In this document: piece by piece, positions 1,529 through 57,551 of the stretch
Layout of the letters: the number at the start of each line of letters is the position of its first letter
Position numbering within the stretch: position 1 is the first letter of the stretch
Source of the DNA: a virus
Taxonomy: Duplodnaviria > Caudoviricetes
IMG/VR virus record: IMGVR_UViG_3300020198_000019
Coordinates: 1-57,551 of that record
Direction: 5' to 3' (one strand)
DNA: 57,551 nucleotides
Translations under genes and position numbers: made by a program
The notes under the pieces: generated by a model
The model's database searches: none
Told to the model about the DNA's origin: nothing
Seen by the model: only the letters and a program-made list of their open reading frames with translations

Positions 1529-1688
1529 CGTACTTCCGTCCGCCGATCTCAACTCGCGATAAGCGATCGCCGTTTCTCCCGCGAGTGCTCCACTTTCGGA
1601 CAGTGCTGACGTCCAAAGTCAAGCCGTAACGGGTCTGGACAAACGCCACGATTTCTTTGGCGCTGAGGAGTTGCTCCGGAGTTTGCAT
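1455..1688 (-). CDS. Excisionase-like winged HTH protein (DUF1580-like)
   Basis: LLSAKEI...STVRKWSTRGRNGDRLSRVEIGGRKY pattern; convergent with and overlapping the recombinase; ATG at 1688. Confidence 0.65.
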   Translation of the reverse strand: MQTPEQLLSAKEIVAFVQTRYGLTLDVSTVRKWSTRGRNGDRLSRVEIGGRKYVKLSRLLAWLHPRTRRQLSGSASL

Positions 1689-2860: not shown

Positions 2861-2874
2861 CGAGGATTTAGACC

Positions 2875-4020: not shown

Positions 4021-4079
4021 TTTGTTTCCGGTTTTTACCCTCCGATATTCGTCTGATCACATTTTTGAGGATGTAGTGT

Positions 4080-4610: not shown

Positions 4611-4655
4611 TTGCGGGCCGCAGGTTTTTCCTTTCTTGTTTTTGGAGATCAAATC

Positions 4656-4766
4656 GTGGGAGACACACCGGTACCGCCGACAGGGATTCACGGCGGCAAC
4701 AAGCTGGCAAACGTGAAGCCTGGTAATCCGATCCAAAACCCAATCACACCGATCAGCACAAAGTGA
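4656..4766 (+). CDS. Small 36-aa hypothetical protein (not in ORF track)
   Basis: GGAG RBS at 4644, GTG start, TGA overlapping the next GTG (GTGA coupling). Confidence 0.45.
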   Translation: MGDTPVPPTGIHGGNKLANVKPGNPIQNPITPISTK

Positions 4767-9235: not shown

Positions 9236-9588
9236 CAAACAGAAAACAAGACTCGATCGTTTCCGCCACACAACCTGCGTTTAAGCCGGCACTTGTGCGG
9301 CAGTACACGGTGCCGGGGTTTGGGGGGCCGCAGGCAGTTACGGTAGCCCTCGGAGATGCCGTGTGGTTTTTCCACCGCGGAGATATGTCGGCCACACCGG
9401 CTCCAGCCTTTGTGGTGGAGTTATGTGACCAAGGTCAAGCGCATTTGGCGGTGTACGACTTGTCGTCTAACGGCTGGCAGCCACGCCGCGGCGCGTGCAT
9501 CACCGGCGACAGCCGTCTGGAAAACGAGCACGTGAAGGCCCGTGGTGTCTGGGTTCCGCGAGTGTTGACCCCGGTTACGGCAGAGTAG
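9232..9588 (+). CDS. Hypothetical phage protein
   Basis: ATGA-coupled to TerL; fills the gap to the portal gene. Confidence 0.65.
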   Translation: MTNRKQDSIVSATQPAFKPALVRQYTVPGFGGPQAVTVALGDAVWFFHRGDMSATPAPAFVVELCDQGQAHLAVYDLSSNGWQPRRGACITGDSRLENEHVKARGVWVPRVLTPVTAE

Positions 9589-9592
9589 CGGT

Positions 9593-11752
9593 ATGGCTGT
9601 GACGTACGAACAAGTCCAACGTTATCTTCTGGGGCCTTTGGTCAGCCAGTGGATAGCGCGCCTCGAGGCGGCTAAGACCGCCAAGAAGCGGTTCACCGCG
9701 TGTGCCAGGCTGTGTCGACAGTTTTACGGCACAGACCCCGGTGCTCAGTGGGGCGACGACGTACGTAACGAGTTCTATCCGCAAGTGCCGAAACCACAGT
9801 TTGCCGTCTCCATCAACAAAGCCTTCGAACTGGTCTCCGTGATCGGCCCGTCGCTGCTGTGGAGATACCCGCGACGGCAAGTGCGGTCGATCCAGCCACC
9901 TTCGCAGGTGGAGATACTGCAAACTGTTTTTGGTGTTCAGGATGAGGCGTTTCTGCAGCAGATGTCCGCCATGGAGCAGACCCAAGCGGCGACCGTAGGT
10001 GTTCGCAACAGATTGCTGGAGCGCGTGCTGAACCACCTCGCCGACAAGCACCCCACAGGCACCTGTTTGGGCGAGGCGCAACTGGTTGTGCAGGACGCCA
10101 TGGTCGCCGGGCTCGGCTTGTTGTGGACTGAAACCTACGTCGACAAGGCGTCTGGCCAACCGATGGTGACCTCGTTTGCTGGGCGTCAGGATGAACTGCT
10201 GGTGGATCCGGATTGCCGGGACGCCACGCGGGCCACGGCTAAATGGATCTCTCGTACGCACGTTGAGCCTGTTTGGGTTGTTGAGCGGAGGTTTGGGTAC
10301 CCACCGGGGTATCTGTCCGGTAAGGGCACGGGAACCAGTAGCGAGTGGGCGTGGCAGGCCAGCCAAACACAGACCGCCCATAAGTATTATCAGGATATGA
10401 TTGAATGGACTGAGATATGGAGCTGTGGCGGAATTGGCGCAAGGGTGCAGGGGATTGACCCTGCGATGGGTGAGGCCCTTGACGCTGTGGCGGGCGAATA
10501 TTGCTACCTCGCGATCTCGAAAAACGTCCCCCACCCGCTGAACCTGCCGCCAACAGTGGTCGAGGAGGCTCCTCCCGACTTGATACGACAGGCTTTGCTG
10601 TGGCGCACGTCACGCTTCGGGGCGGTGTGCGAGTTCTGGAAAGACCGTCGATGGCCGTGCGAGTTCCTGGAATTTTACCCGCTGTCGGGAAGCCCGTGGC
10701 CAATCGCACCTCTGGCCCCGGGGCTGCCGTTTCTGCTCTCTATGAACATTCTGCTGGTCTCGCAACTGCAGATGTCGTACGACCGCCGACGAGACATCAT
10801 CGGCGTTTACGAGCACATGGCGCAGCAGGTTAACGAGGCCTTGAATTCTGAGAGCACCCCGTGCGTCGTAAAACTAACAAGCGCGGCTCAGCAATCAATC
10901 GGCGAGGTGATGCAGTTCCTGCAAAGGCCTCCGGTTCAGGGCGATCTGCTGATGTGGATTCAGTATCTGGACCAACAGTTTCAGAAAGCGACTGGGCTGG
11001 ACGACCTGTCGTACGGGATCAGTCAACGGCAAAGCCGGGTTGTTGCTGATGTGCAGATGCGTCAGCAGAAATCGGCTGTCAGACCGGAGAAGATGTCGTT
11101 AGACGTTGCTGACTTTCTGCGGCGGTCTGCCCAGAAGGAGCTATGGTTGACGGCAATGTATTTACCCGGGGACGCCTTGGTCCCGCTGTTAGGTATGTAC
11201 GGTGCTCAGATCTGGGAGCAACAAATCCGCACGATTCCGTTTGAGGTGATGGTCCGGCAGTTTGACACCGTCGTCGAAGTCACGGAGATGCACCGCCCCG
11301 ACAACGATAAAGAGATCCAAGACCATGAGCGGATCTTGCCGTTCCTGTTGCCGGTGCTGCAGGGATACGCACAATCCACCGGGGACACCGCCCCACTAAA
11401 CGCGCTGTTGCAGCGGTATTTCACCGCAATGCAGCTCACCAACCCGTCAGCGTTTGCGATGCAGGGCTGGTCTCAGCGGCCCGACCCTGCGGCTACGCAA
11501 ATGCAGCAGGCCATGACGCAAGCCCAGCTAGACAGGCTGGCCGCCGAAACCGAAGACACGCGAGCCAAGGCGGTAGCGCGTTTGACAGACGCGCAGTACA
11601 AATCTCAAGGCTCAACCGCTTCGGGTTTGCAACGTTTGCGGTTTGCTGAGCTTGACCACCAACAGCGGATGCGGCAGGCCGACGAGGCCCACCTGCAGAA
11701 CATGCTGATTACCCAAGAACGTTCTGATTTGGAGCAGCAGTATGTCCGGTAA
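9593..11752 (+). CDS. Portal protein
   Basis: 719 aa after TerL; LLVDPD and KATGLDDLSYG motifs; Gln-rich helical C-terminal barrel as in P22-like portals. Confidence 0.75.
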   Translation: MAVTYEQVQRYLLGPLVSQWIARLEAAKTAKKRFTACARLCRQFYGTDPGAQWGDDVRNEFYPQVPKPQFAVSINKAFELVSVIGPSLLWRYPRRQVRSIQPPSQVEILQTVFGVQDEAFLQQMSAMEQTQAATVGVRNRLLERVLNHLADKHPTGTCLGEAQLVVQDAMVAGLGLLWTETYVDKASGQPMVTSFAGRQDELLVDPDCRDATRATAKWISRTHVEPVWVVERRFGYPPGYLSGKGTGTSSEWAWQASQTQTAHKYYQDMIEWTEIWSCGGIGARVQGIDPAMGEALDAVAGEYCYLAISKNVPHPLNLPPTVVEEAPPDLIRQALLWRTSRFGAVCEFWKDRRWPCEFLEFYPLSGSPWPIAPLAPGLPFLLSMNILLVSQLQMSYDRRRDIIGVYEHMAQQVNEALNSESTPCVVKLTSAAQQSIGEVMQFLQRPPVQGDLLMWIQYLDQQFQKATGLDDLSYGISQRQSRVVADVQMRQQKSAVRPEKMSLDVADFLRRSAQKELWLTAMYLPGDALVPLLGMYGAQIWEQQIRTIPFEVMVRQFDTVVEVTEMHRPDNDKEIQDHERILPFLLPVLQGYAQSTGDTAPLNALLQRYFTAMQLTNPSAFAMQGWSQRPDPAATQMQQAMTQAQLDRLAAETEDTRAKAVARLTDAQYKSQGSTASGLQRLRFAELDHQQRMRQADEAHLQNMLITQERSDLEQQYVR

Positions 11753-12389
11753 ACCTCCCGAACGGTACCCCAACCGCAGAGACCAAAGCGACTTTGAGGC
11801 TGTTTGGCACAAAGGCCCCACCGCTGTGGCGTTTTTTGAGCAGATTGTCGGCGCAGAAGGCGTGCGTATGGCGGCAATGCTGGCGTCTCGGTCTGCCCCT
11901 ACGTCCGGTGTCGATGACCGCATGGTGATGGCTAACAGCGGCAGTGTTGAGGAAACGTTCCGGGGAAGCCCGGAGATGTTGAACCTGTATCGAGCCCAGT
12001 ATCGACGGGAGACCGGTGAGGATCTGCCGGCAGACGCGGTGGTGTACCGCGGAATCGTGTCTTACCCTGGAGAGAGCGGGGCGATCGTGACGCACAAGCG
12101 GAGTCTGCAGGAAGTCAAAGAGTATTTGAAAGCCCGTGGCCGGGACGTGCATGGGGATTGGGACGTGACTGGGGATCAAGTTGCTGCAACTCCGCAGGTT
12201 GTGCGAATGGGTCCCGACATTATGAGTAGGTACAAGGCGGAGTACCGGGCCGAGGGTGGGTGGGAGAATGCGACTGACAGAGACCTTGAGGAAGAGATCT
12301 TGCACAAGCACGCCCCGGTTGTGACTGCGGATGACGTACATAACGCACCTGCCACGCTGGACGAATGTGCTAACTTGATGATGCGATGA
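11742..12389 (+). CDS. Hypothetical phage protein
   Basis: Overlap-coupled to the portal gene; GGAG upstream. Confidence 0.65.
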   Translation: MSGKPPERYPNRRDQSDFEAVWHKGPTAVAFFEQIVGAEGVRMAAMLASRSAPTSGVDDRMVMANSGSVEETFRGSPEMLNLYRAQYRRETGEDLPADAVVYRGIVSYPGESGAIVTHKRSLQEVKEYLKARGRDVHGDWDVTGDQVAATPQVVRMGPDIMSRYKAEYRAEGGWENATDRDLEEEILHKHAPVVTADDVHNAPATLDECANLMMR

Positions 12390-40187: not shown

Positions 40188-41618
40188 ATGCCAAACGGGC
40201 ATTGCACTCTCTCGCCGTCGTCCGCTAAGCGATGGATTTCGTGCCCGGGCAGTTTGTTTGCGCCGCAGGGCGACACTGGCGGCGTGGACGCGCAACGGGG
40301 GACTTTGCAGCACAAGCTGTTTGAGTTCCTGCTGTGGCAGCACATGCAGGGTTGGGCTCCGGGCAAAACCTGCGGGCCTTTATCCCGCATAACACCAGTT
40401 TGGGAGGGCGTACCGTTTGTGCAGTGGGTACATTCACACCCTTTGCACAGCATGTACCAGCACACATGGTCACACACCCCCGACGTGCATCTATGTGATG
40501 ACGACTTCTACTTGGTGGAAGACGCGTTTCGGATGGTGTTGGAGATCGTGCGGTCTCACGAGCTGGAATTTGTGTACGTGTTCTCCGAGTGGCGGATGTC
40601 GCTGAGCGTCGTCGGAATGCGGGACGACCCCGGTCAGTCAGCAGAGCCGTGGTGTGGCGGCACAGCGGACTGCGTACTGGTCGGGTCTCGACAGGGGCGC
40701 AAGGTCGTGATCGTTTGCGATCTCAAAACCGGACGTAACCGTGTGCATCCGGATGATCCGCAACTGTTGTTGTATGCAGCAATGGTACTAGGTCAGCTCC
40801 ACGTAGCAGAAACACCAGCGTCAGACCCTGCCGTTGTGGCGTGGTTGCGGGATGCCCCTTTGGCGGCGAGTGGGGTAATAACCGCAGTGCTTCAGCCAAA
40901 GAGTAACCCGGCGTTGGCGATGCATAACTGCTCGCCGGACGAACTCGCCAACGTTGTGGATGCGGTTAAGCGTGTGAAAGGTCTTATTGTCCCGCACGAT
41001 CTGTCGTCCACGAATCCGCCTGCGGATTTACTGGTCGCCGGACCGCACTGTCAGTACTGCAGGCGGCGTAGTGTGTGCTCCGCATACACGACCATGCACC
41101 AGCATGAGTTTGCCGCTGTTGTTTGGGAAGCCCCGGGCAAACAGGTTCTGCCGTTGCCTGTGGCAGACCTGACTATCGAACAGCTCTTGCAGTTCGAGCG
41201 GCGTATTGATGTGGTCACGCAATTTTGCAGTGACGTAAAGAAGGAGTTACTACGCAGAGCGCACAGGGGCGTAGCAATCCCCGGTAAAAAATTAGTCACC
41301 GTGTTTGGCCACAGGCAGTGGCACGTTGACGAACGGATGACGGGGGAGCAGGTGGTTATTGAGTTGTCGCAGGCGATGGGCGTTCCGTCCGACGTGTGCG
41401 TTGACACGACACCTGCCTCCCCTGCCGAGGTCGAAAGGCGGCTGCGATCTCGGTACGGCTTGAAAAAAGCGGAGGCGGCGGAAGCTGTCAACCGCTTCGC
41501 TCGGGCAAAAATGCAAGCCGTCAAACTTGTTGATCGTGACGCCTCCGGCGACGAGGTTACGCCGGAAGCCATTGTGCATTTCTTAAACGCTATTCAGGAT
41601 GCTGAAAACAATGACTGA
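40188..41618 (+). CDS. DUF2800-family PD-(D/E)XK (Cas4-like) nuclease
   Basis: LSPSSAKRWISCPGS, GT..H, GTAD, DLKTG, QLLLYA, GPHCQYC...C. Confidence 0.88.
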   Translation: MPNGHCTLSPSSAKRWISCPGSLFAPQGDTGGVDAQRGTLQHKLFEFLLWQHMQGWAPGKTCGPLSRITPVWEGVPFVQWVHSHPLHSMYQHTWSHTPDVHLCDDDFYLVEDAFRMVLEIVRSHELEFVYVFSEWRMSLSVVGMRDDPGQSAEPWCGGTADCVLVGSRQGRKVVIVCDLKTGRNRVHPDDPQLLLYAAMVLGQLHVAETPASDPAVVAWLRDAPLAASGVITAVLQPKSNPALAMHNCSPDELANVVDAVKRVKGLIVPHDLSSTNPPADLLVAGPHCQYCRRRSVCSAYTTMHQHEFAAVVWEAPGKQVLPLPVADLTIEQLLQFERRIDVVTQFCSDVKKELLRRAHRGVAIPGKKLVTVFGHRQWHVDERMTGEQVVIELSQAMGVPSDVCVDTTPASPAEVERRLRSRYGLKKAEAAEAVNRFARAKMQAVKLVDRDASGDEVTPEAIVHFLNAIQDAENND

Positions 41619-42381
41619 GAAAGAAGACCCGTGTCGGGTAACAGTGGGGCCGTTGGTCCTTTCGTACCCAGCACTACATACGCCAAAGGCGTCCCTCAAC
41701 AAGACGCAGGATATGCAGTACTCTGCAGAGTTTTGGTTGCTTGCCGACAACCCCCACGCTGCAGAGATCCACAAATCGCTGGTAACGGCTTCGCAGGCAG
41801 CATGTGCCGAAAAGCAGGTGCCGTTTAACTCTCACACAATGCAGCCGCTGAAAGAAATTGACCCCGCCAAACTACCTGCGGGGAGATCCGGATGGATGTT
41901 TCGCGCCAACTCCAAGAGTCGGCCAGAACTGTTCGTGTGCCGGACCAAAGGGCATTTGGTGCCTGCTATCGAGACCGATCTGTACCCCGGATGTCACGTC
42001 TACGCTACCATCCGAGCGAGTTTTTACTCGTTGCAGGGCGAGAATAATGTTCCGGTCAAGGGCGTCAAGTTCTACCTGAACGGGGTGTGCAAGGTCGGTG
42101 ATGGCCAGCGTATGGGTGGCGGTCCTGTAGACGCCGCAGAAACATTCTCTGCGACGGATATGCAGATCATGGCTTTCGACGCCGCGCCTACCCCGGGATT
42201 CGAGGGCATTCCGAGTACGCCCGCTGCACCGGCCCCGCCGTGGCAGCAGCAGGCACCGGCCCCGCCGTGGCAGCAGCAGGCACCGGCCCCGCCGTGGCAG
42301 CAGCAGGCACCGGCTGCAGCTCCGCCTGCCGGCCCCGGGTACGTTATTCCGGGGTGGCCTTCTAACGCCCCATCCTTTTGA
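41611..42381 (+). CDS. DUF2815-family ssDNA-binding protein (T7 gp2.5-like)
   Basis: LSYPAL, LYPGC, GVKFYLNGV.KVGDGQRMGG motifs. Confidence 0.82.
   Translation: MTEKEDPCRVTVGPLVLSYPALHTPKASLNKTQDMQYSAEFWLLADNPHAAEIHKSLVTASQAACAEKQVPFNSHTMQPLKEIDPAKLPAGRSGWMFRANSKSRPELFVCRTKGHLVPAIETDLYPGCHVYATIRASFYSLQGENNVPVKGVKFYLNGVCKVGDGQRMGGGPVDAAETFSATDMQIMAFDAAPTPGFEGIPSTPAAPAPPWQQQAPAPPWQQQAPAPPWQQQAPAAAPPAGPGYVIPGWPSNAPSF
42226..42314 (+). repeat. 27-bp perfect tandem repeat x3 (APAPPWQQQ)
   Basis: gcaccggccccgccgtggcagcagcag at 42226, 42253, 42280, plus a partial fourth copy. Confidence 0.95.
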
Positions 42382-47874: not shown

Positions 47875-48132
47875 TCACTTGTTGCGGCTGCGGTCGGCGA
47901 ACCACTCGCCACCACGGAGCACGAACCACCGGGGCATCATATCGCGACCGATCACCGCATAGGCGTTTGCCCCGTCGTAGTATCGTGTTTCACCGCCAAC
48001 CGTCCGGCATTCGTATTGACCGAGCAGCATTTGACCCGCTTGCTCACGATCCTTGCGGTCGCGTGCCGCATATTCGTTATCGGCTCGCAGGCTGTCAGCA
48101 TTCGGCAGAACTGTTCCAATCATTCGCGGCAT
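47875..48132 (-). CDS. Array gene, hypothetical
   Basis: Start and stop fixed by flanking A elements. Confidence 0.75.
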   Translation of the reverse strand: MPRMIGTVLPNADSLRADNEYAARDRKDREQAGQMLLGQYECRTVGGETRYYDGANAYAVIGRDMMPRWFVLRGGEWFADRSRNK

Positions 48133-48198
48133 CGTCTCAACTCCCAGCCTAAAGAAAAATCCCCGCCGCCCTATGCTGCGGGGCTGTTGTGTTGTGCC

Positions 48199-48411
48199 TC
48201 AGTCCCGATACACGGCACCGTATTGCTCGTCCTGCCAGATGGTGTACGCAACATTGTCAGCCTCCACGATTTCGCCAGTCAGCATTCCGTCGGCATCGAC
48301 TTCCAAATACCAGCCCGAGCAGCACCATTCCTGCGGGATGTCCTCGACGCTGTTGCCCTGATATTTGACCGCCACAAGTGCCAGTTCTCGCTGCGTAATT
48401 TCCCGTGCCAT
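48199..48411 (-). CDS. Array gene, acidic hypothetical (MAREITQ...)
   Basis: ATG just after the GGGAG of an A element; flanked by identical 54-bp repeats. Confidence 0.75.
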   Translation of the reverse strand: MAREITQRELALVAVKYQGNSVEDIPQEWCCSGWYLEVDADGMLTGEIVEADNVAYTIWQDEQYGAVYRD

Positions 48412-48478
48412 TGCCCTAACTCCCAGCCTAAAGAAAAATCCCCGCCGCCCTATGCTGCGGGGCTGTTGTGTGTGTGTG

Positions 48479-48730
48479 TCAGTCCAGTTTGTGCGTGAAT
48501 CCGTGAAAATGCCGCCTCGCACACGCACGGCCAACCGGGAAAAATCCCATATACCCGGGATCGCTTTCGTCGGTGTTCAGCCCTGGGGCAGCCACCTGTC
48601 TGCCGCCGTCAATCACCTCGACGAACAGCGGCTCGCTCGTCAGCTTGCGACCACAGCACGCACAGTGTTCCGTGCTGCCTTGCGTGCTGTGGTCTGCCCA
48701 CTTCATCGGAATCATCGCTGCTGTGCTCAT
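48479..48730 (-). CDS. Array gene, Cys-motif protein (CACCGRKL...VGRACAR)
   Basis: Bounded by A elements; probable zinc-binding motif. Confidence 0.75.
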   Translation of the reverse strand: MSTAAMIPMKWADHSTQGSTEHCACCGRKLTSEPLFVEVIDGGRQVAAPGLNTDESDPGYMGFFPVGRACARRHFHGFTHKLD

Positions 48731-48797
48731 CGTCGTAACTCCCAGTCAGAAGTAAAATGCCCGCCAGCACTGTGCTGCGGGGCTGTTGTGTTGTGTC

Positions 48798-49040
48798 TCA
48801 GTCTACGATCCGCCGGATTGATCGTCCGTGGAATGTGCCCTTGCGGATACGGTCAGACCAGCCACGACCCTCGCCCCAGTAGTGTGCCCTGTCCAGCAGC
48901 ACTACTGCCTGCCCTCGGGCGTTGTCGCTGAATCCAATCACTCGACCAATCACCAGCATCTCAGTCGCACCGTGATTGTATCGCGCCAGAATGTCGCCGA
49001 CTCGCACGCCGTTCCACTGAATCCGATTTGATACCTGCAT
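48798..49040 (-). CDS. Array gene, small beta-rich hypothetical
   Basis: Bounded by A elements. Confidence 0.72.
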   Translation of the reverse strand: MQVSNRIQWNGVRVGDILARYNHGATEMLVIGRVIGFSDNARGQAVVLLDRAHYWGEGRGWSDRIRKGTFHGRSIRRIVD

Positions 49041-49103
49041 TTGCCCAACTCCCAGTCAGAAGAAAAATGCCCCGCCGCACTGTGCAGCGGGGCGGTGTGT
49101 GTG

Positions 49104-49367
49104 TCAGCCGCCGTACTCGACAACACTCAGGCGGAATGACTCGCCGCTGTCAGTCTTGCCCCACACATCATAGGTGCATTCGCCGTCTGCGTCCTCGACA
49201 CTGGCGTTTGCGGCGTAGTCAATTTCATCGACGCCAGTCAGTGCGTCTTCCAGCCATTCCAGATTGTCTCTCACATCGACCCGAACGCGAACCGTTACAG
49301 TGCGGTCTTTGCTAATGCTAGTTGCAATTGCGGCTTCGATCTTCATCGCTCGGGTAACAGTCGTCAT
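49104..49367 (-). CDS. Array gene, acidic hypothetical (MTTVTRA...)
   Basis: Bounded by A elements. Confidence 0.75.
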   Translation of the reverse strand: MTTVTRAMKIEAAIATSISKDRTVTVRVRVDVRDNLEWLEDALTGVDEIDYAANASVEDADGECTYDVWGKTDSGESFRLSVVEYGG

Positions 49368-49459
49368 CGTCTGAACTCCCAAAAACTAAATGGATACGCC
49401 CCGCCGCACTGTGCAGCGGGGTGGTGTGTTGTTGTTTTGCTTCATTCCGCTTCAGCGTC

Positions 49460-49678
49460 TTAGCTCTTCTTCAGCAGCACGTAATCGATGTACTTGAACT
49501 GACATTCCGCAAGCTGATCGGACAATTGCCACATGATTTCTGTCGCATCAAAATCCGCTTCTTTTTGTGCTGCGTGCCCTGCCTTGCGAAGCAGCTTCCA
49601 TGTGTCCAGCATATGCGCCATCGCCACTTGCTGCAGTGCAGCACTGTCCTGTTGTTTTTGTGATTTACGTTTTGCCAT
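49460..49678 (-). CDS. Array gene, helical hypothetical
   Basis: ATG after A-element RBS. Confidence 0.7.
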   Translation of the reverse strand: MAKRKSQKQQDSAALQQVAMAHMLDTWKLLRKAGHAAQKEADFDATEIMWQLSDQLAECQFKYIDYVLLKKS

Positions 49679-49740
49679 TTGCCCAACTCCCAGTCAGAAG
49701 AAAGCCCCGCCGCACCATGCGACGGGGGAACACGTCCATC

Positions 49741-49983
49741 TCACCGTGACTGTCGGTCAATCGACTGCCAATGAGCCAGCGTGTCGGCGTCCAAATCAAA
49801 CGACTCACCGACCTCAGAGTGCCAGCCATTGGTGTTGACCCTGCGCCCACGCAATCCATCAGCCGTCTGGCGTGCCTGCAGGTGGCAAACGCCACCGTGC
49901 GCGGCTCTATTTTCGTCTCGGCTCACGGAGCCGGTATACCCCACAGTTGCCACTGTGGTCCATGTTCGAGTGATCCTACTCAT
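49741..49983 (-). CDS. Array gene, hypothetical (MSRITRT...ENRAAHGGVC)
   Basis: ATG after A-element RBS. Confidence 0.75.
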   Translation of the reverse strand: MSRITRTWTTVATVGYTGSVSRDENRAAHGGVCHLQARQTADGLRGRRVNTNGWHSEVGESFDLDADTLAHWQSIDRQSR

Positions 49984-50050
49984 CGTCTGCAACTCCCAGT
50001 CAGAAGAAAAATCCCCGCCAGCACTGTGCAGCGGGCTGTTGTGTGTGTCA

Positions 50051-50233
50051 TCACCACGCCGCCTGAATGTCCGCGTGTGCCACGGTGATAATGCGGCCAC
50101 TCCCTGTCAGCAGCCGCACAGCCGTTCGTCCTACCGCCACGATCCGCAGTGTTTTGCCGTCCACAGTTGCCCAGCGGCTTGTGTTTTTGCAGTCGCCAGC
50201 GATGTTCTTGAGTTCGTTAGTGTTCATCTTCAT
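50051..50233 (-). CDS. Array gene, small hypothetical
   Basis: Bounded by A elements. Confidence 0.7.
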   Translation of the reverse strand: MKMNTNELKNIAGDCKNTSRWATVDGKTLRIVAVGRTAVRLLTGSGRIITVAHADIQAAW

Positions 50234-50313
50234 CAACTCCCAGTCAGAAAAGAACCCCGCCGCACTGTGCTGCGGGGCTGTTGTGTTTCACTCGTCCGCC
50301 TGCATGATCTTAA

Positions 50314-50631
50314 TTAACAGACCTCCGCTGCGAGGTCGTCGATGGCCGCGTCGACCCATTGCGGAAAATCAGTAACGACCATTTCCCGCATCTTCGACTC
50401 ACCAATCGCACACGCTGCCATCTTCAGGCTGTCTTCCTCGTCCTCGCCGTCATACCGGTGGCGGTGTGCGGCCAGTTCCGCTTCGGCCTCAGTCCGCGCC
50501 ACGCGCACCGTGTAACCACCGAAAAAACCGCGATCTTCTTTTGGCAGTTTACTGTCGCCACCGCTCATGTGCTCAAAACCAATCTGAAAGGTGTGTGCGT
50601 CTGCTTTGCGTGTTTCAAGTTTCATGTTCAT
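50314..50631 (-). CDS. Array gene, hypothetical (MNMKLET...)
   Basis: Flanked by identical 58-bp repeats. Confidence 0.72.
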   Translation of the reverse strand: MNMKLETRKADAHTFQIGFEHMSGGDSKLPKEDRGFFGGYTVRVARTEAEAELAAHRHRYDGEDEEDSLKMAACAIGESKMREMVVTDFPQWVDAAIDDLAAEVC

Positions 50632-50690
50632 CAACTCCCAGTCAGAAAAGAACCCCGCCGCACTGTGCTGCGGGGCTGTTGTGTGTGTCA

Positions 50691-50912
50691 TCACTCCGGC
50701 GGATGCTCGTAGCCGAGTGTTTCGACGTAGTATCGTTCGCCATCCTCAACATCAAACAATCCAACGCCAATTGTGATCTTGTCTTCCTTGGCGATTCGTT
50801 CCGCAGCACCCCAGGCGAGGGTTTCACTGCTGTATCCGCTGTCGTCGCCTACGCGACATTCTCCGCCGTCAGTGTCGAGTTCCCACAGGAAATAGCGCCG
50901 TGTCATCGTCAT
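50691..50912 (-). CDS. Array gene, acidic hypothetical
   Basis: Bounded by A elements. Confidence 0.72.
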   Translation of the reverse strand: MTMTRRYFLWELDTDGGECRVGDDSGYSSETLAWGAAERIAKEDKITIGVGLFDVEDGERYYVETLGYEHPPE

Positions 50913-50975
50913 TGCTCAACCCCAGTTGTGTTCCGCTAAAAAATCCCCGCCGCACTGTGCAGCGGGGCTGTTGTT

Positions 50976-51209
50976 CTACCTGTCGTAATTGATACTGCTC
51001 CGGTCAACCTGCCAGATATCTGCTGTAATCAGCCGGACTGCAACAGGTTGAGTGGACATAGGCAGACGCACCGTACCTGTTGTCTCGCTCGTCATCGTCA
51101 CAGTGCGTCTATAGCTGGCTTGGTGCCATGGATCTCGACCACCACAGCCACATCCACACGGCACCAGTCTGTACCATACGATTTGATTCGCCAACTTTGC
51201 CATCTTCAT
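50976..51209 (-). CDS. Array gene with CGCGCGG.DPWH motif
   Basis: Bounded by A elements. Confidence 0.72.
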   Translation of the reverse strand: MKMAKLANQIVWYRLVPCGCGCGGRDPWHQASYRRTVTMTSETTGTVRLPMSTQPVAVRLITADIWQVDRSSINYDR

Positions 51210-51269
51210 CAACCCCCGTCAAAAGAAAATAAAACCCGCTGCCCATTGCAGCGGGGTGTGGCGTCAGCC

Positions 51270-51458
51270 TCAGACTGCCTTACGAATGCGTCGCAGTGCT
51301 GACTGGCTCAGGCTGTGCATTGTGGTGTAGTGACCGGCTGCCGCATCGTACACCCGGACGGTGCCGTCTGCACTGATTGACACGCGATTCAGTCGGACGC
51401 CTTCGCCGCTGAAAGCCTTGCATCGGATAACGCGGATGGTTGTGTTTGCTGTGCTCAT
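51270..51458 (-). CDS. Array gene (VRVYD..AGHYT..HSL)
   Basis: GGAG RBS; ATGA overlap with the upstream gene. Confidence 0.72.
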   Translation of the reverse strand: MSTANTTIRVIRCKAFSGEGVRLNRVSISADGTVRVYDAAAGHYTTMHSLSQSALRRIRKAV

Positions 51459-52057
51459 CGGGCCCAACTCCACAAAGTAGAATCCTGCGACACATTAACA
51501 GACATCGGTATAAAGCGTACCCCGCAGTACCGCACAAACTTGTGCATCAGAGCCCGGCAGACCGAGTACTCGAAAGTGTTCAGCTCAATAGGCGGGATGC
51601 TCTCAGCCAGCATCAAGTTGGAGAAGTTCATAGGGGGTATTGTCGCACCGCCAGAAGTTCTCAGGTACGTTGCGTACGCAATCAACCAATTCATGGCGGC
51701 GGAAGCGAGAAACATCATCGCCTCCCGCTCCCGTTCCATCTCCTTCTTCTCGTCCTCGCTCAGTTTATTACCGGCCTGGGGCAAAAACAGATCGGGTTTA
51801 CATGCGTCCGTTACCCACAGCTTTTCAGGACGCCCGTTCTTACGGGTAGACAGGACCTCAAACCAAACGTTAAACCACGTCTGATCTCCTATCAGTTCCC
51901 CGGTCGCGGCATCCTCGGAAGTGTCGTGGTCAGCAACCTGCTCGACGATCAGCGTCCGGATCATACGGGGCCGGAGGCCTTGTGTCCGGGTGTAAAGCAG
52001 ATTCAACTTGCCGGCAAGAGCGGCGTCTACGGGAACCTCAAGAGTAACACGAGCCAT
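51455..52057 (-). CDS. Hypothetical protein, possibly with an N-terminal RHH-like segment (MARVTLEVP...)
   Basis: 200 aa; follows a GAAA-loop hairpin. Confidence 0.65.
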   Translation of the reverse strand: MARVTLEVPVDAALAGKLNLLYTRTQGLRPRMIRTLIVEQVADHDTSEDAATGELIGDQTWFNVWFEVLSTRKNGRPEKLWVTDACKPDLFLPQAGNKLSEDEKKEMEREREAMMFLASAAMNWLIAYATYLRTSGGATIPPMNFSNLMLAESIPPIELNTFEYSVCRALMHKFVRYCGVRFIPMSVNVSQDSTLWSWAR

Positions 52058-52069
52058 GATATTTTCCAA

Positions 52070-52110
52070 AGGAAAAACCTCAAAGAGGCGGGGGCTTTCG
52101 CCCCCGGCCA
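52070..52110 (-). terminator. GAAA-tetraloop hairpin plus U-rich tract
   Basis: CGGGGGC-GAAA-GCCCCCG followed by CTCTTTGAGGTTTTT on the minus strand. Confidence 0.55.
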
Positions 52111-52141
52111 TACAAACCAGCAGCCACGATAGCCGCCGGCA

Positions 52142-52921
52142 TCACAGAATACGCAACAAACTGGGCAGGACAGCATTGCGGCTGCCGTGCCCTACAATCG
52201 CCACGTGCTTACGCTGGTCAGCCATGTCCCGGCGACCGTCGCAGGCTCCGCAAGTAGCACAGGTGCGGGTATTGCCCGCTTCGGGTGACGCCGGACACAG
52301 GATCTCGTTAGACGCAAGATCGTCGACGGTCCGCATGACACGGAACGTACGCCAGCCAGCATCCTGAGCGATCACCGCCTCAGCTTGTGACTGCACGCTC
52401 GCCATAACCAGCGGCTGCCACCCCGCCGCAGCAGACTCACGCCACTGATGCGTGTATCCGGGGTACTTGCCGGGTTTAAGCAACGCTTCAAGAGCAGCCC
52501 ACGCCTCACGCGGCACGGCGACCGGGTCCCCGTAAGACCCGCGACGCAATGCGTACTTGCCGAGCTTACGCAGCATTGACTTGCCGAGCTTTGTCACGTG
52601 CTGATAAGACCCTCGACGAAAGGCTTTCCACACTTGCTCTGGGGCGTTTCGTATCGTCACATAACACGCACGGTAACGGTTCCTCGTGCGGTGCTTACTG
52701 CCCTTCGGCATGCGCTCCACAACGCCACGCAACGGGCAGGAACCGCAGATACTCGAGTCCTTGCCGCTATTGATCGCGGCGAGGGGGCTAACATCCCGTC
52801 GCAAGATCCATGTCTGGATCAGCGGGCCTGTTTTTTCGTTGCGTGTGCCTATTGTGGCGATAGCAACAATCGGCTTGCCGTCCAGCATGGACGGACCGGA
52901 GTAAAAGATAACGCCAGCCAT
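52142..52921 (-). CDS. Cys-rich conserved phage protein, possibly Fe-S / radical-SAM-related (Gp88-like)
   Basis: NEKTG, CGSCP...CYV, RGSYGDP, GYTHQW, CPAS...TCATCGAC, terminal HG. Confidence 0.65.
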   Translation of the reverse strand: MAGVIFYSGPSMLDGKPIVAIATIGTRNEKTGPLIQTWILRRDVSPLAAINSGKDSSICGSCPLRGVVERMPKGSKHRTRNRYRACYVTIRNAPEQVWKAFRRGSYQHVTKLGKSMLRKLGKYALRRGSYGDPVAVPREAWAALEALLKPGKYPGYTHQWRESAAAGWQPLVMASVQSQAEAVIAQDAGWRTFRVMRTVDDLASNEILCPASPEAGNTRTCATCGACDGRRDMADQRKHVAIVGHGSRNAVLPSLLRIL

Positions 52922-53006
52922 GATCAACTCCCATAGTGGGCCAGAAAAAGAAAACCCCGACGACACGGTGTCGCCGGGGAGTACTGCAATCGACCTGCTT
53001 TCTGCG

Positions 53007-53183
53007 TTATGGGGCGATCTCTTCTCGCACCACGGAAACCGTATCACGCGGGCTGTCAAACGCCAGACTGCATGACCCTGTCGCAGTGCTGTTGATTTTT
53101 ATGGTGATCACAACCGGGTCGGACCCGGGAGGCGTCACCGTAATGACAACACGCTGGCCTCTTCGACGTTTCAATACCAACAT
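53007..53183 (-). CDS. csrA: CsrA/RsmA-family RNA-binding protein
   Basis: MLVLKRRRGQRVVI...ITIKI...LAFDSPRDTVSVVREEI matches the CsrA pattern; AAGGAG RBS. Confidence 0.8.
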   Translation of the reverse strand: MLVLKRRRGQRVVITVTPPGSDPVVITIKINSTATGSCSLAFDSPRDTVSVVREEIAP

Positions 53184-53262
53184 TCGAAACTCCTTAATGG
53201 AAAAGCGTGCCGGCAAACACGCCGGCACATCTGGAAAACTCTACAACATCTGTGGAATCGTG

Positions 53263-53610
53263 TCAACGGGAAAACCGGATCAGCCGGCAATGCCGCAGTT
53301 TGATCACGCCCGCTTCATCGACCCGGGCGTGAGCGGTATTCGTGTCATCGAGGGACACCCAGTTACCGGGCGTCGGATCTCCGGGCTGCGGTGATGCGAA
53401 CCACCGCACATCGATCGCAAGGTACACGGTAGTCTTACGTGCTCGGGCATTATACGGGGCCTGACTACGCCACAATTTCGTGGCTTCCACGATATTGGGG
53501 CCACTGCCCCAACTACAATCCCCGACCACCAGAAACCACACCCATCCTGACGGGGCGTCCGTCACGTCCAACAACACGCTGTGATTACGAAACAGAACTT
53601 CACTCGCCAT
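53263..53610 (-). CDS. Array gene, hypothetical (MASEVLF...)
   Basis: ATG after B-element RBS. Confidence 0.68.
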   Translation of the reverse strand: MASEVLFRNHSVLLDVTDAPSGWVWFLVVGDCSWGSGPNIVEATKLWRSQAPYNARARKTTVYLAIDVRWFASPQPGDPTPGNWVSLDDTNTAHARVDEAGVIKLRHCRLIRFSR

Positions 53611-53674
53611 CACTCTCTCCCATAATGGGACCAAAGAAAAGCCCGGCGACACGGTGCCGCCGGGCATGTAACAC

Positions 53675-54259
53675 TCAGCGGGTTTCGACAAAGGCCCTGA
53701 TATTATCCCACTTTTCTTCCGCAACACGATGAGCTGCATCCCTTGCAGCAAGCGCGTCGTTGAACTCAACTACTAAGCGGTTCACTGCGCTCGTCAGTAA
53801 CGTAGTATCCGCATCGCCAGCGACTTCGGTGAGCGGGTAGGGTGGCCTCACTGGGCCGTCAACGACAGTGATCTTGCCGTCCGTGTCAAACGAACACAGG
53901 CGTACAACGATCTCGTTGTACTCACACATGTGCGTTTCCTTGCCGTTGGTGACGAAGGCGCACCCCTTAACCAGCAGGTAGATGCTGTGCTTGCTTTGCT
54001 GCGTCGTCAAGTACCCCAAGGCCAGGTACCGCTCGGGGTACGCACGTCGGTGTGTTTCTGCCTCCCACACAGCCGGGGCTACAGCGTTACGAAACGCTGT
54101 GGTCAACGTAAGGTCAGTCTTCACAGCTTTCTTGCCAACGTACGCTGTAATGGCGGACCGCAGTAACGGCAGCAACAACAAGGCAAACCGCAGCGCCCTG
54201 CAGTGAGCCTCGAGGCGGGCCTGATACTGCGGCGTCATAGTGACTGGGTACTCTCGCAT
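53675..54259 (-). CDS. Array gene, hypothetical (MREYPV...)
   Basis: Bounded by B elements. Confidence 0.72.
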   Translation of the reverse strand: MREYPVTMTPQYQARLEAHCRALRFALLLLPLLRSAITAYVGKKAVKTDLTLTTAFRNAVAPAVWEAETHRRAYPERYLALGYLTTQQSKHSIYLLVKGCAFVTNGKETHMCEYNEIVVRLCSFDTDGKITVVDGPVRPPYPLTEVAGDADTTLLTSAVNRLVVEFNDALAARDAAHRVAEEKWDNIRAFVETR

Positions 54260-54344
54260 AACACACTCCAAACAAAAACCAACAGGAAAAACCCCGACGA
54301 CACGGTGTCGCCGGGAAGGTACTGCTCAGGACCTGCTTTCTGCG

Positions 54345-54572
54345 TTAAGACCCCCGCTTGCAGTAGTTACACGCAGCGTTCAAGGCCTTTAGAAAAGCAC
54401 TATTCGACTCGATGACGTTTCGAACTTGAGATTGCCGGCTGTTCGTATCCGAGTAACACTCGGGCTCGGCAAGCGTTTCGAGTTCCTCCACCAACAACCG
54501 GGCTACGGCGAGCGCGTCCTCAATCAGGGGCTCGGCGTCGCTTTCATCAAACTTTCTCATCTTATGCGTCAT
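54345..54572 (-). CDS. Array gene, helical hypothetical
   Basis: Bounded by B elements. Confidence 0.7.
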   Translation of the reverse strand: MTHKMRKFDESDAEPLIEDALAVARLLVEELETLAEPECYSDTNSRQSQVRNVIESNSAFLKALNAACNYCKRGS

Positions 54573-54644
54573 GGTAACACTCCCGTAATGGGCCGCAAAA
54601 GGCCCGGCGACACGGTGCCGCCGGGCATAGAAAACACTAAAGCC

Positions 54645-55283
54645 TCACGGCTTGTGCTCAAGCTCAGACATTGCATCCCGAAAAGCCTTGATAACTTGGT
54701 ACTCGTAAGCAGACTCGGGATCAATCGCCCACGTATCGTCCTGATCCAACTGTTCCCGGGCAGAGGTCACCATGTCTTGAATCAAATACTCCACGTCGGA
54801 ATCGTAATAGCCGCCGCAACTGTCAAGTTGGGTTTCGTCGTCGTCGTCGCCAACCCCGGACCACGAAAGCCCGTGGCCGTTACACCAGTCCGTGTAGCAC
54901 TGGAGGAACCGATCAGCGTCCTTTGCCCGATCCTCGTACGTCTTAGCCCCGATGGCGGAAGGCCCATGTTCCCAGAGCAATACGCCTGCGTGTCCGACGC
55001 CGTCGAAACGGCAGTCAGTACCTGGGCCACCGTGCCCCTTACGAAACCACACACACTCCCCGTGCTCGTAATAGCTGAGCATGAACGCCAGCCCGACATC
55101 GAGTCGGCGGCGAAGGCTGATGTCCCGAGCGGTGAACACGAGCGATCCGTGTTTACGGGTGACACGAAACAACTTGTCGGGGTGCTGAAACCCGACGTGT
55201 TTGCGGCTAAACGACACGAGTTTCCAGTTCATGTCGTTTTCGGCTGGATCTGGACAGCAATCAGGCTCGATCTTAAACGTCAT
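54645..55283 (-). CDS. Array gene, conserved-looking acidic phage protein (YEHG...YTDWCNG...DSCGGYY)
   Basis: Bounded by B elements. Confidence 0.78.
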   Translation of the reverse strand: MTFKIEPDCCPDPAENDMNWKLVSFSRKHVGFQHPDKLFRVTRKHGSLVFTARDISLRRRLDVGLAFMLSYYEHGECVWFRKGHGGPGTDCRFDGVGHAGVLLWEHGPSAIGAKTYEDRAKDADRFLQCYTDWCNGHGLSWSGVGDDDDETQLDSCGGYYDSDVEYLIQDMVTSAREQLDQDDTWAIDPESAYEYQVIKAFRDAMSELEHKP

Positions 55284-55415
55284 AACACTCCCGTAATGGG
55301 AACAACAAAGAAAAACCCGGCGACACCACGTCGCCGGGAACCTACTGCTCTGGACCTGCTTTCTGCGTTAGCCGATAAAACGTTTCGCTGCTCACAAAAA
55401 CGGTGTTGGCATCAG

Positions 55416-55760
55416 CTATCCTACAACCTTGGATAATTTCATTGGCTTGTTCATCCAAGGTTGTGGCTGGATATGAATGAACCAATCTTGAATTGAAGGA
55501 ATAAAGCCCATGTCTTCGGTAACGTGTTGTTCACCTATCCATCGAGTAGGAATAACCCTGCCCGTTGATAGCGTGATTGTATTGCCGAACACGCGTTCAC
55601 ACTCAAAGATACCTTGAGCATGATGTCGTAAAGCACGATGCCGAAAATCAGCAAACATTTCCTTGCTGGCATCAAACCATTCGTGAATTTTTTGATAATC
55701 CTCTGGGTTTCCGCCCCATTTTTGGGTTGAGGAAAGGGAATGATGATATGGATTAGCCAT
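55416..55760 (-). CDS. DUF6915-like protein
   Basis: MANPYHHSLSS..KWGG...IHEWFD.SK...DFRHRALRHH..GIF..E..FG...EQHV.ED.G.IPS; GGAGG RBS; AT-richer than neighbours. Confidence 0.8.
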   Translation of the reverse strand: MANPYHHSLSSTQKWGGNPEDYQKIHEWFDASKEMFADFRHRALRHHAQGIFECERVFGNTITLSTGRVIPTRWIGEQHVTEDMGFIPSIQDWFIHIQPQPWMNKPMKLSKVVG

Positions 55761-55771
55761 TGTGTCCTCCA

Positions 55772-55808
55772 TAAAAAAAGGTAGGTGTGAGGCCAATCCT
55801 CACACCTA
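55772..55808 (-). terminator. Perfect 11-bp hairpin plus U7, directly before the RBS
   Basis: TAGGTGTGAGG-N5-CCTCACACCTA at 55782-55808, then CCTTTTTTTATGGAGG on the minus strand. Confidence 0.7.
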
Positions 55809-55819
55809 ACTCCAAAGAA

Positions 55820-55910
55820 TGCGAACAAAGCGGTCAACCGGAGCCGCCGTTCGCGCGGGTTTTGAAATCAAAGTCTTTCGGCGGCGGCCCGGTTACCGCC
55901 GTCGTTAGTA
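55820..55910 (+). other. attC: Integron attC recombination site (91 bp)
   Basis: R'' TGCGAAC, 5-nt spacer, L'' GGTCAACC, ..., L' GGTTACC, 6-nt spacer, R' GTTAGTA; unpaired C55835 and A55842 give the extrahelical G and T on the bottom strand; further 7-bp GCCGCCG/CGGCGGC stem. Confidence 0.85.
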
Positions 55911-56264
55911 TTAACAATTTTCCTCAAAATCTTCGTAATTTAAAACTTCCTCGCACCCTTTCATCGTGACAGTTTTCGTCGTGGTATCCCAAATAACCTC
56001 ACCCGTTACGCTGTATTCACCAGCGAACGTATAGTATTTGTCATAAACTGGTCGGCACAGCCCGCGAACAAGCGCGTTTTCGGGCGTTTGCTCTCTGCCC
56101 GAATCCTCTGGCCAATAATCTTCATGTAATTGGCAGATGACTGTGTCATCTTTCTGGATGACAATGTCATGGCATCCGCCTTCATCATTGCCACCACTGA
56201 AACGGATAACGCATTTGTTTCCGCCTTTGCTTTTGATGAAAGCAAACAGTTTTTCACGTGTCAT
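55911..56264 (-). CDS. DUF6878-like protein
   Basis: VIRFSGGNDEGG motif; next to the DUF6915-like gene; AT-richer; GGAG RBS. Confidence 0.7.
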   Translation of the reverse strand: MTREKLFAFIKSKGGNKCVIRFSGGNDEGGCHDIVIQKDDTVICQLHEDYWPEDSGREQTPENALVRGLCRPVYDKYYTFAGEYSVTGEVIWDTTTKTVTMKGCEEVLNYEDFEENC

Positions 56265-56354
56265 AGCTTTTCTCCATTTCGTCCTTAACGTAAAAACAAA
56301 AACCCGGCGACACCACGTCGCCGGGAACCTACTGCTCTGGACCTGCTTTCTGCG

Positions 56355-56951
56355 TTAGCGTACCTCGGAACGCACGTTGATGAGACCCTCCCGCATTTCC
56401 TCGCTGGTGATCTCGAACTGTTTATCTGTAGACCGCACGTACCACGTCCACGTAATATCCTCGCGGTCACCCTCGCACTCCTCGATCCAGAAATGCATCC
56501 GCTTGATTATCGCTCGCGTTACCCGCCACGATTCGATTGACGGGTAGCTCCCCTTAACCACGACTCGGTGCCAGCCCCAGTGCTGCATCGCATACAGCCT
56601 AACGTCCTCCGTGTTAGGCTCAGACTGCAGGGCGAACTGGGCCACCAGTTCCGGTAGCCCCGTCCAAAGCGCGAGTAGATCATCGCATGATAGATCTTGA
56701 CTTGGGTTTACGTCGGCCAGCCTGCACCGTAATTCGATGCAGTCTAAGCCGTACTCGTTAGACGCGATCAAGTCGAACACCGATAAAAATTCATCGTAAA
56801 CGGGGTCGTCGGGGTTTGCGGCACTAAGCGCTGCGTAAACAAGCCCGAAAGCGTGTTGGCGAGCCACCATCTCGTGGTTCGCCACGTCAACCCCTGCGTC
56901 ACCGTCACAGTACGTAACGTGACCGTGATTATCGATCCAGTACTCAGACAT
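56355..56951 (-). CDS. Array gene, hypothetical (EYWID...CDGDAG...NHE)
   Basis: GGAGG RBS; stop codon lies inside the B element. Confidence 0.75.
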   Translation of the reverse strand: MSEYWIDNHGHVTYCDGDAGVDVANHEMVARQHAFGLVYAALSAANPDDPVYDEFLSVFDLIASNEYGLDCIELRCRLADVNPSQDLSCDDLLALWTGLPELVAQFALQSEPNTEDVRLYAMQHWGWHRVVVKGSYPSIESWRVTRAIIKRMHFWIEECEGDREDITWTWYVRSTDKQFEITSEEMREGLINVRSEVR

Positions 56952-56974
56952 GACTTACCTCCGTAATGGAAACA

Positions 56975-57012
56975 AGAAAGGAACACGAACGATGGCCGCC
57001 GCAGCGGCCATC
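56975..57012 (-). terminator. 9-bp hairpin plus U-rich tract before the RBS
   Basis: GATGGCCGC-TGCG-GCGGCCATC at 56991-57012. Confidence 0.5.
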
Positions 57013-57015
57013 TAT

Positions 57016-57350
57016 CCTGCACCCGTCTAAGGCCTGTGTCACAACTCGTCGGTATCTTCGATCTCGTCCTCATCCGATTCAAAAGGTTCAAGCTCAATAC
57101 CTAGCAGTTTAGCCAGCTCTTCGCAATCATCTGCCATTGGTTCAAAGCTTTCGCGACCTTCGTCGGTTGAGCAATCCCAAACTTGTGCGAGACCCTCTAA
57201 ACACGAATTACGCAATCGTGTTAGGATGTCTTTCATTTTTTCTTTTTCTTCCGCGGTTGCCATTGCTAACACCTTAATCGTAAAGTTTTGCTTGTTTCAA
57301 AAGCCCAACAATAGTTTCTTCTGGAACGTCCCTGCACCCGTCTAAGGCCT
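57016..57350. repeat. 20-bp direct repeat CCTGCACCCGTCTAAGGCCT (family C)
   Basis: Identical at 57016-57035 and 57331-57350. Confidence 0.9.
57039..57263 (-). CDS. Array gene, acidic hypothetical (MATAEEK...)
   Basis: Lies between the family C repeats; AT-rich; AAGGTG RBS. Confidence 0.68.
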   Translation of the reverse strand: MATAEEKEKMKDILTRLRNSCLEGLAQVWDCSTDEGRESFEPMADDCEELAKLLGIELEPFESDEDEIEDTDEL

Positions 57351-57424
57351 ACCCTACAGCTCGATCCGGATCACACTCCGCAGCTTGTTGTAACGCAGGC
57401 GGATTGATCCGATTAAGTTCCCGT

Positions 57425-57550
57425 TCAAGACTTTTCCTCCGGAATGTCGTATGTGTCGCAAATTCCAAAAGCTTCTGAGGCTTCATTTGGTTCTTCAACC
57501 AAAAATGCTATGCGTTTTAGTACCGCAGCAAGAACCATTTGACGACCTTG
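57425..57550 (-). CDS. 3' end of a gene truncated by the window edge
   Basis: Open frame from the edge to a TGA at 57425. Confidence 0.35.
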   Translation of the reverse strand, partial: QGRQMVLAAVLKRIAFLVEEPNEASEAFGICDTYDIPEEKS

Positions 57551-57551
57551 C

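Follow-up and report, generated by a model that had tools for sequence, protein, structure and literature searches.

We analysed the linear IMG/VR virus record IMGVR_UViG_3300020198_000019 over its whole length of 57,551 bases (hereafter the window; completeness estimate, 88%), and investigated a short AT-rich insert near its end, which carries a DUF6878-like gene, a DUF6915 gene and a single integron site (attC). The record represents an uncultured phage of lake water and encodes a serine recombinase (20-1528), a large terminase, a DNA polymerase, a helicase and a recombination-type exonuclease. From ~47 kb to the record end, all of the genes are small, lie on the minus strand and are separated by repeated hairpin elements; the elements between the small early genes considered here are termed B. 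The insert occupies the slot between two resident genes, X and Y, and is bracketed by two copies of B (Table 1). On the coding strand, its order is a GGAG site, the 117-aa gene, attC, a terminator-like hairpin, a GGAGGA site, the DUF6915 gene, 43 nt and B copy 1.

Table 1. Features of the locus and full B copies, in positions of the window
Feature	Position	Strand	Description
Gene X	56355..56951	-	Resident gene, 198 aa, no family; homologues at 50% identity in G001 and G002
B copy 2	56298..56359	-	Last 2 nt of gene X plus TAA stop, conserved 5' box, 9-10 bp GC-rich hairpin 56325-56303, T run
AT-rich insert	55373..56297	-	925 bp, GC 0.453
DUF6878-like gene	55911..56264	-	117 aa, own GGAG ribosome site
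attC	55821..55910	+	Single site, Planctomycetota type, GC 0.61
Terminator-like hairpin of the insert	55782..55808	-	Followed by a T run; predicted
DUF6915 gene	55416..55760	-	114 aa from the ATG at 55760, preceded by GGAGGA; phrog_8143
27-nt segment	55373..55399	-	Between the departure point of contig L019 and B copy 1; 39% GC by eye
B copy 1	55311..55372	-	Hairpin 55338-55316, then resident ribosome site and start of gene Y
Gene Y	54645..55283	-	Resident gene, 212 aa, no family; homologues at 54-55% identity in G001 and G002
B copy	54288..54347	-	Full copy, 87% to the flanking pair
B copy	52951..53009	-	Full copy, 82% to the flanking pair; its TAA is the stop of the CsrA-like gene

Sequence comparison and a repeat search established that the two flanking B copies are identical at 62 of 62 nt, as the initial annotation had stated. 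Beyond this stretch, one mismatch (55310 versus 56297) is followed by AAA, and 65 of 66 nt match overall. When the whole record was searched with B, copies 1 and 2 were recovered at 100% (E 3.4e-28), with the next best matches at 87% and 82%, and among the 62 within-genome B pairs of this phage and its two relatives, G001 and G002, the flanking pair is the closest (63/64; best other pair, 0.95). Both copies carry the loop CACCAC (GTGGTG on the coding strand), which had been proposed to set the pair apart. It indeed differs from the loops of the other four hairpins in the window, but a third copy, which shares the loop and differs at about five other positions, lies just past the window end, in the metagenome contig L019 (Ga0194118_10006345; L019:703-793), and the variant is thus a local subtype, not private to the flanking pair.

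On the coding strand, B starts 2 nt before a TAA, after which come a conserved box, a GC-rich hairpin of 9-10 bp and a T run, and this anatomy is kept in 21 aligned copies from four sequences (the window, G001, G002 and L019). The upstream gene stops at this TAA in three of the four full copies of the window, and the T run is followed by the next ribosome site and start. The B hairpin is a predicted intrinsic terminator, at which transcription would end; terminator-like sites within 52000-57551 number 18, versus 6.0 +/- 2.4 in shuffles, and include every B hairpin. No sigma-54 or sigma-70 promoter was recognised in the B box, either by eye or in a promoter scan with the E. coli consensus.

Several tandem B 5' boxes (CGCAGAAAGCGG-like) precede the first full early-region B copy in this phage, G001 and G002 (L019:640-715; L016:1890-1990), and these look like repeated regulator binding sites. 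In addition, the early region contains a CsrA-like gene (53007-53228, minus strand; Pfam CsrA, E 9e-8), which takes its TAA stop from a B copy. Many B copies are followed by a ribosome-site context with strong conservation around a GGA (CCATTAYGGAG in G001 and G002), which could be a target of the CsrA-like protein.

The composition of the DNA between the flanking repeats supports a foreign insert. The initial annotation had described this DNA as AT-richer and suggested a GC and codon profile, which bore out the description: the GC of the insert is 0.453 (0.436 minus attC) versus 0.572 for the window (sd 0.026, 2266 sliding 925-nt windows), making it the lowest-GC stretch of the record, with only 0.04% of the sliding windows as low, and the GC3 values of its two genes are 0.38 and 0.46 versus 0.66-0.68 in four neighbouring genes. 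The insert also has its own ribosome sites, GGAG-type before both genes, and its own hairpin (55808-55782), again as first described; for the DUF6915 gene, a longer frame from a TTG at 55796 would cross this terminator. The 27 nt next to B copy 1 share the AT-richness of the insert and include an in-frame stop (frame by eye), and their assignment as the end of gene X was ruled out, as no similarity was found.

The insert is in these respects like the morons of lambdoid phages. These are additional genes that deviate in composition, bring their own expression signals and lie between resident genes which, in relatives, adjoin each other or have other genes between them. As in the morons, deviant composition and own signals are found here between two resident genes. 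Bracketing by a duplicated resident terminator element is not known of morons.

The two genes had been called a DUF6878/DUF6915-like pair, and this proved clear for the second and less direct for the first. The DUF6915 protein matched its Pfam family (PF21866) over the full profile 1-102 at 163 bits against a cut-off of 27 (E 2.2e-48), whereas the 117-aa protein scored 16.7 bits with DUF6878 (PF21798; E 0.0074), under the gathering cut-off of 24.3. However, when the small phage family of the 117-aa protein, which shares 34-39% identity with two phage proteins, was compared with the plasmid DUF6878 proteins by hhalign, the probability was 93% (E 3e-7, 117 columns). Together with the kept position upstream of DUF6915, this makes a distant homology to DUF6878 likely.

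On alphaproteobacterial plasmids, some of them typed conjugative, the pair stands back to back, and in 4/4 loci examined (6 DNA matches) the DUF6878 gene precedes the DUF6915-like gene by 2-11 bp, with antirestriction, RadC, SSB and DUF932 genes among the neighbours. DUF6915 was also found in 70 viral loci (GC 0.30-0.60); a DUF6878-like gene stands ahead of it in one of them (L060, 6 bp gap), and attC in none. This adjacency, on the plasmids and in L060, indicates that the pair is a conserved module, and that the 150-bp spacer, with its attC and terminator, is a peculiarity of the present lineage. Thus, the phage pair has the same gene order and orientation as the plasmid pair and a clear DUF6915 match, but it includes only a distant DUF6878 relative, and its genes are 150 bp apart with attC and a terminator between them, versus 2-11 bp on the plasmids.

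Phage and plasmid DNA searches with the pair gave distant DUF6915 matches only, and its proteins were absent from the five Planctomycetota genomes searched. No solved or recognisable fold and no defence-library match was found for either protein: a PDB sequence search gave no match below E 0.65, and PADLOC gave none. The AlphaFold model of DUF6915 (pLDDT 82.6) is a small helical domain, for which Foldseek returned nothing at E 0.001 and the best VIA-align hit, a helical protein with Z 5.9, is at noise level. The family has ~29 invariant positions, many of them His, Asp and Glu, and may be metal-binding with a new fold. A narrow literature search on the function of DUF6878 or DUF6915 found no paper. 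The pair, common on plasmids and with its DUF6915 member in 70 viral contigs, would represent a mobile accessory unit, which may serve for example in establishment or counter-defence.

The X-Y slot in relatives and the module in other contexts

The IMG/VR phages G001 and G002 carry eight B copies each and homologues of both X and Y, which lie 2.4-2.5 kb apart with four to five other B-bounded small-gene units between them. The DUF6878/DUF6915 pair is absent from this X-Y slot in both phages, and neither has an attC. The initial annotation had held that its integration reading would fall if all relatives carried the pair with diverged flanks and its composition matched the neighbours; instead, G001 and G002 lack the pair, and the composition is deviant.

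The two relatives are 100% identical to each other on either side of a ~3-kb tract of 80-95% identity, which covers the X-Y slot (L016:4400-7500 versus L017). A cassette replacement between them, an impression from the open reading frames, was ruled out, as the DNA aligns throughout; the tract includes a 153-nt indel. This comparison marks the X-Y slot as a recombination hotspot, with tract edges that do not lie at B copies. Furthermore, B copies far apart in G001 and G002 have long halves that are identical, and their orthologous copies differ as a mosaic.

Outside the window, the module was found in two other contexts. The metagenome contig L019 matches the window at 99.86% from 57551 to 55400, including X, B copy 2, both genes and attC, and leaves it at 55399/55400, 16 nt after the DUF6915 stop. 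It then continues for at least 3.5 kb at a GC of 0.42-0.48, with neither B nor Y, and this continuation shares 84% identity with the AT-rich phage contig G407; a search of IMG/VR gave no junction of the L019 type. Run X20 contains a module variant with 8 differences in 600 nt that likewise departs at 55400, and a further contig of this run diverges from the window at 56302, where the T run meets the B hairpin. This run holds 0.64 of the sampled words at low depth, with holes on the Y side and the variant module only. The L019 and X20 contigs together indicate that the module also occurs with B on neither side, within or next to a lineage of AT-rich phages that shares its composition.

The 54300-57300 stretch is present in 20 lake-water metagenome runs. 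The read data consist of k=31 contigs from four runs, which end within the 62-nt repeat, and only their depth is informative. The module depth was close to that of the flanks in two runs (63 and 50 versus 59 and 51, and 59 versus 53 and 57), and exceeded it in a third (22 versus 16 and 12). The depth fits one integrated copy in most genomes plus B-core copies elsewhere.

The B elements are similar to PeSLs, the promoter-early stem-loop regulatory cassettes of T4-type phages, for which the available text of the two papers proposes a role as preferred recombination sites releasing mini-circles (Arbiol et al. 2010, PMC2839356; Comeau et al. 2014, PMC4122927). Like the PeSL in the available text of PMC2839356, B is a repeated intergenic motif of 60-100 nt that leads from a stop through a stem-loop, in B a predicted terminator, and a Shine-Dalgarno sequence to a start. 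As described there too, the copies are concentrated among small accessory genes, with a gene content between them that varies among relatives. A gene between two PeSL copies is the proposed substrate or product of mini-circle formation in that text, and the same layout is found here. B is unlike PeSL in lacking a recognisable sigma-70-like promoter in a scan with the E. coli consensus, having instead the conserved box before the hairpin, and in that no indel with boundaries exactly at B was found between the close relatives G001 and G002; the phage itself is unlike the T4 type in its size of ~65 kb and its serine recombinase. PeSL-style modular gene shuffling, so far T4-type, would be extended by these data to an unrelated uncultured lake phage, with an element that has no recognisable promoter, and the locus offers a concrete place for measuring the gain and loss of accessory modules.

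The attC site

The attC called in the initial annotation at ~55821-55910 was correctly identified. It consists, on the plus strand, of R'' (TGCGAAC), a 5-nt spacer, L'' with an extra base, the loop, L', a 6-nt spacer and R' (GTTAGTA). The arms of its palindrome were found exactly in 11 Planctomycetota genome assemblies, and in all 11 an AAC box and a GTT-purine-rich box bound the palindrome, with unrelated sequences outside. A 12-site alignment with a consensus fold confirmed the paired R''/R' and L''/L' inverted repeats with AAC and GTT, as well as two unpaired columns on one arm in 12/12 sites and spacers of 5 and 6 nt.

A covariance model built from these 12 sites gave 80 matches in five of the Planctomycetota genomes, in co-oriented clusters with a spacing of 0.5-2 kb; in the controls, it gave one match in the window, none in G001 or G002 and none in 413 kb of other viral loci. 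In the Pirellulales genome G004 (L037, G004:C6:1-14000), an integron integrase gene, intI (465 bits versus a cut-off of 265), precedes 10 sites that all lie on one strand and within 12 kb. The attC is confirmed as authentic by these comparisons, and its family appears to be active enough to build arrays of tens of cassettes. In this G004 integron, which is complete, intI (716-1660, plus strand) points at the array, whose 10 attC sites run from 2062 to 11775; we take this orientation to be the inverted-integrase arrangement.

The window and L019 each contain one attC only, and no integron integrase was found in the record (TIGR02249, E 0.01). A first search of IMG/VR with the attC arms gave two matches, which turned out to be unrelated coding sequences matched by chance, and Rfam found nothing in the early region of the window or in seven planctomycete loci.

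The orientation of an attC is set by its bulged bases and its 5- and 6-nt spacers (Stokes 1997; MacDonald 2006). By this bulge and spacer rule, the top strand of the attC is the plus strand of the window, which is consistent with the arrays. Indeed, when frames of at least 80 codons were considered in the arrays, 12 of 39 sites had one on the opposite strand ending at the corresponding side, versus five of 39 with a same-strand frame at the other side; for the best 16 array sites, the counts were nine and two. These counts exclude four of the original 43 rows, of which one was a partial match and the other three were reverse-strand echoes. The rule and its agreement with the arrays indicate an inverted orientation of the phage attC with respect to the gene whose end adjoins it.

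Integrons have been reported in Planctomycetes (PMC4889954), a Planctomycetes-specific attC model is available (Ghaly et al. 2021, PMC8352920), and attC clusters in phage genomes have already been published (Qi et al. 2023, PMC9892861), as given in the available text of these papers. Like the published sites, the present one is a folded imperfect palindrome with AAC and GTT boxes, unequal spacers and bulged bases. The published phage clusters, as far as described in the available text of PMC9892861, comprise at least two sites, whereas here a single site occurs with no integrase in the record; it splits a conserved gene pair and is inverted with respect to the adjoining gene end, unlike in most array cassettes. 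In the available text of PMC9892861, we met no Planctomycetes phage. The present phage probably infects Planctomycetota, an assignment made from the attC family alone, and the site links the phage, or an AT-rich lineage exchanging genes with it, to Planctomycetota hosts. New here is a PeSL-like shuffling element together with a phage-borne attC in a probable Planctomycetota phage, both kinds of element being already known. Integron sites would travel within phage accessory modules, a route of exchange between host cassette pools and phages.

A bolder proposal, which we regard as improbable, is that the attC is a live docking site, which the integrase of a planctomycete host would recombine with cassettes or with the host array during infection, so that the phage early region and the host integron would trade genes while B would give the termination and translation signals. 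If true, the phage would have a two-layer cassette system, and its hosts would belong to a phylum with almost unknown viruses.

Origin of the insert

Tentatively, and at somewhat less than an even chance, we favour a recent insertion of the module from an AT-rich phage lineage, joined at both borders of a single resident B, with duplication of that B. A foreign two-gene module would have been taken into the variable slot between X and Y, one joint lying in the T run just after the B hairpin and the other 2 nt before the TAA that opens B; with the joints at both B borders, the resident B would then stand on both sides, duplicated. The duplication may have occurred by template switching (copy-choice) or by a three-molecule recombination at the hairpin among replicating genomes, as opposed to a homologous crossover. 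The two perfect 62-nt repeats should in turn permit loss of the module by homologous recombination.

Several points weigh against such an insertion. The initial annotation had suggested a search for an empty allele, with one B joining X to Y, but this allele was not found in any of the IMG/VR, metagenome and Planctomycetota collections searched, and the insertion is therefore something we infer, not something seen. In IMG/VR, a scan with X gave three distant loci and one with Y gave none, and the B motif occurred in two other contigs only; a metagenome scan with the X alignment gave 403 pattern stretches, two of which were relatives. None of these searches revealed X-B-Y, and X had no match in 401 Planctomycetota genomes. 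The direction of transfer, too, is inferred, and the 27 nt at 55373-55399 had no match in the 112 records compared. The edges of the diverged tract of G001 and G002 do not lie at B copies; of the proposal that the B elements are insertion points, what stood is that B bounds small-gene units in a PeSL-like manner.

The B-less contexts, moreover, come from one metagenome contig, possibly an assembly chimera across the shared 900 bp, and from short contigs of one low-depth run. The terminator function of B is a prediction only, and the promoter scan of 52000-57551 returned five promoter-like sites, none of them in a B copy, with a consensus that is that of E. coli while the likely host is a planctomycete. 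Finally, the depth of words inside B is ~3 times that of the flanks, which points to copies of the core sequence elsewhere, and gene conversion could thus have made the pair identical.

The route put forward in the initial annotation, which we consider possible but rather unlikely, assumes that a 987-bp circle composed of the module and one B integrated by a single crossover; the circle would have been excised by B-by-B recombination in a related phage and have entered a lone B between X and Y. Two complete, identical B copies in direct order are an exact structural fit to this event, and both the T run that follows copy 2 and the bases that precede copy 1 are unlike the resident ones, as a circle-borne B would give. 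In addition, the k=31 graph holds a 985-base contig from inside one B to inside the other, and the phage encodes a recombination-type exonuclease. Mini-circles have been documented for the PeSLs of T4-type phages, according to the available text of PMC2839356. However, no donor with the module between B copies was found, and neither a circle junction nor an empty-site junction appeared in the k=31 contigs, which end within the repeat and would not have revealed one. The module is without B in both of the other contexts (L019 and X20), and the B of the circle would have to match the resident B over 62 nt, although the other copies differ by 5-12 nt. Since the module exists without B flanks, such a circle is just one route among several, and the mobile unit may have differed from 987 bp in length. 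What remains of the first integration proposal is the foreign composition, the absence of the pair from G001 and G002, and the bracketing by a recent duplication.

Somewhat less probable again is a history in which two old B copies surrounded an earlier cassette, the module replaced this cassette leaving 27 nt, and gene conversion made the copies identical. Several B-bounded units do occupy the slot of the relatives, and the shared long halves and mosaic differences among the B copies of G001 and G002, the third same-loop copy upstream and the raised depth of B-core words agree with conversion among old copies; yet the identity of the flanking pair spans the whole element and stops at its borders, including the 2 nt before the stop codon, and no other within-genome B pair is above 0.95. 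The odd 27 nt would be explained as a remnant of the earlier cassette, but they are AT-rich like the insert and have an in-frame stop, and are thus no plain gene end.

That a host integron integrase inserted the module, or part of it, via attC, with the B repeats being incidental, seems very improbable. A single attC and no integron integrase are present in the record, and integrase action does not duplicate 62 nt, although the attC is authentic and of an array-building family. A core-like GTTGGCA (55404-55410) does lie 5 nt away from the breakpoint of L019, and on the coding strand B copy 2 is followed after 4 nt by a GTTAAGG, but the breakpoints do not fall between the G and the TT, with 5 nt shared beyond, and the attC is inverted with respect to the adjoining gene end, unlike in most array cassettes. 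Equally improbable is an assembly artefact, in which a graph loop at a single B was unrolled and the module is a separate molecule or belongs to another phage: the k=31 graph does loop at B and the same lakes also contain the module in other contexts, but two independent assemblies (the window and L019) run from X through B copy 2 into the module, the window assembly passes both B copies, and the module depth tracks the flanks across runs differing ~four-fold.

Other repeats and AT-rich segments of the window

A second repeat family occupies 48129-51270, with nine copies of ~61 nt each spaced 244-615 nt apart. Its layout on the minus strand is the same as that of B, with a hairpin, a T run and a GGGAG ribosome site between small genes. 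Near the window end, a 33-nt direct repeat (82%; 57016-57048 and 57331-57363) flanks an AT-rich small gene (57039-57272; GC3 0.41), and this region may be a second foreign module. The last 127 bp of the window share 97.6% identity with the AT-rich phage contig G407. Finally, three to four tandem 27-nt repeats were observed at 42206-42314, within the frame 41599-42381.

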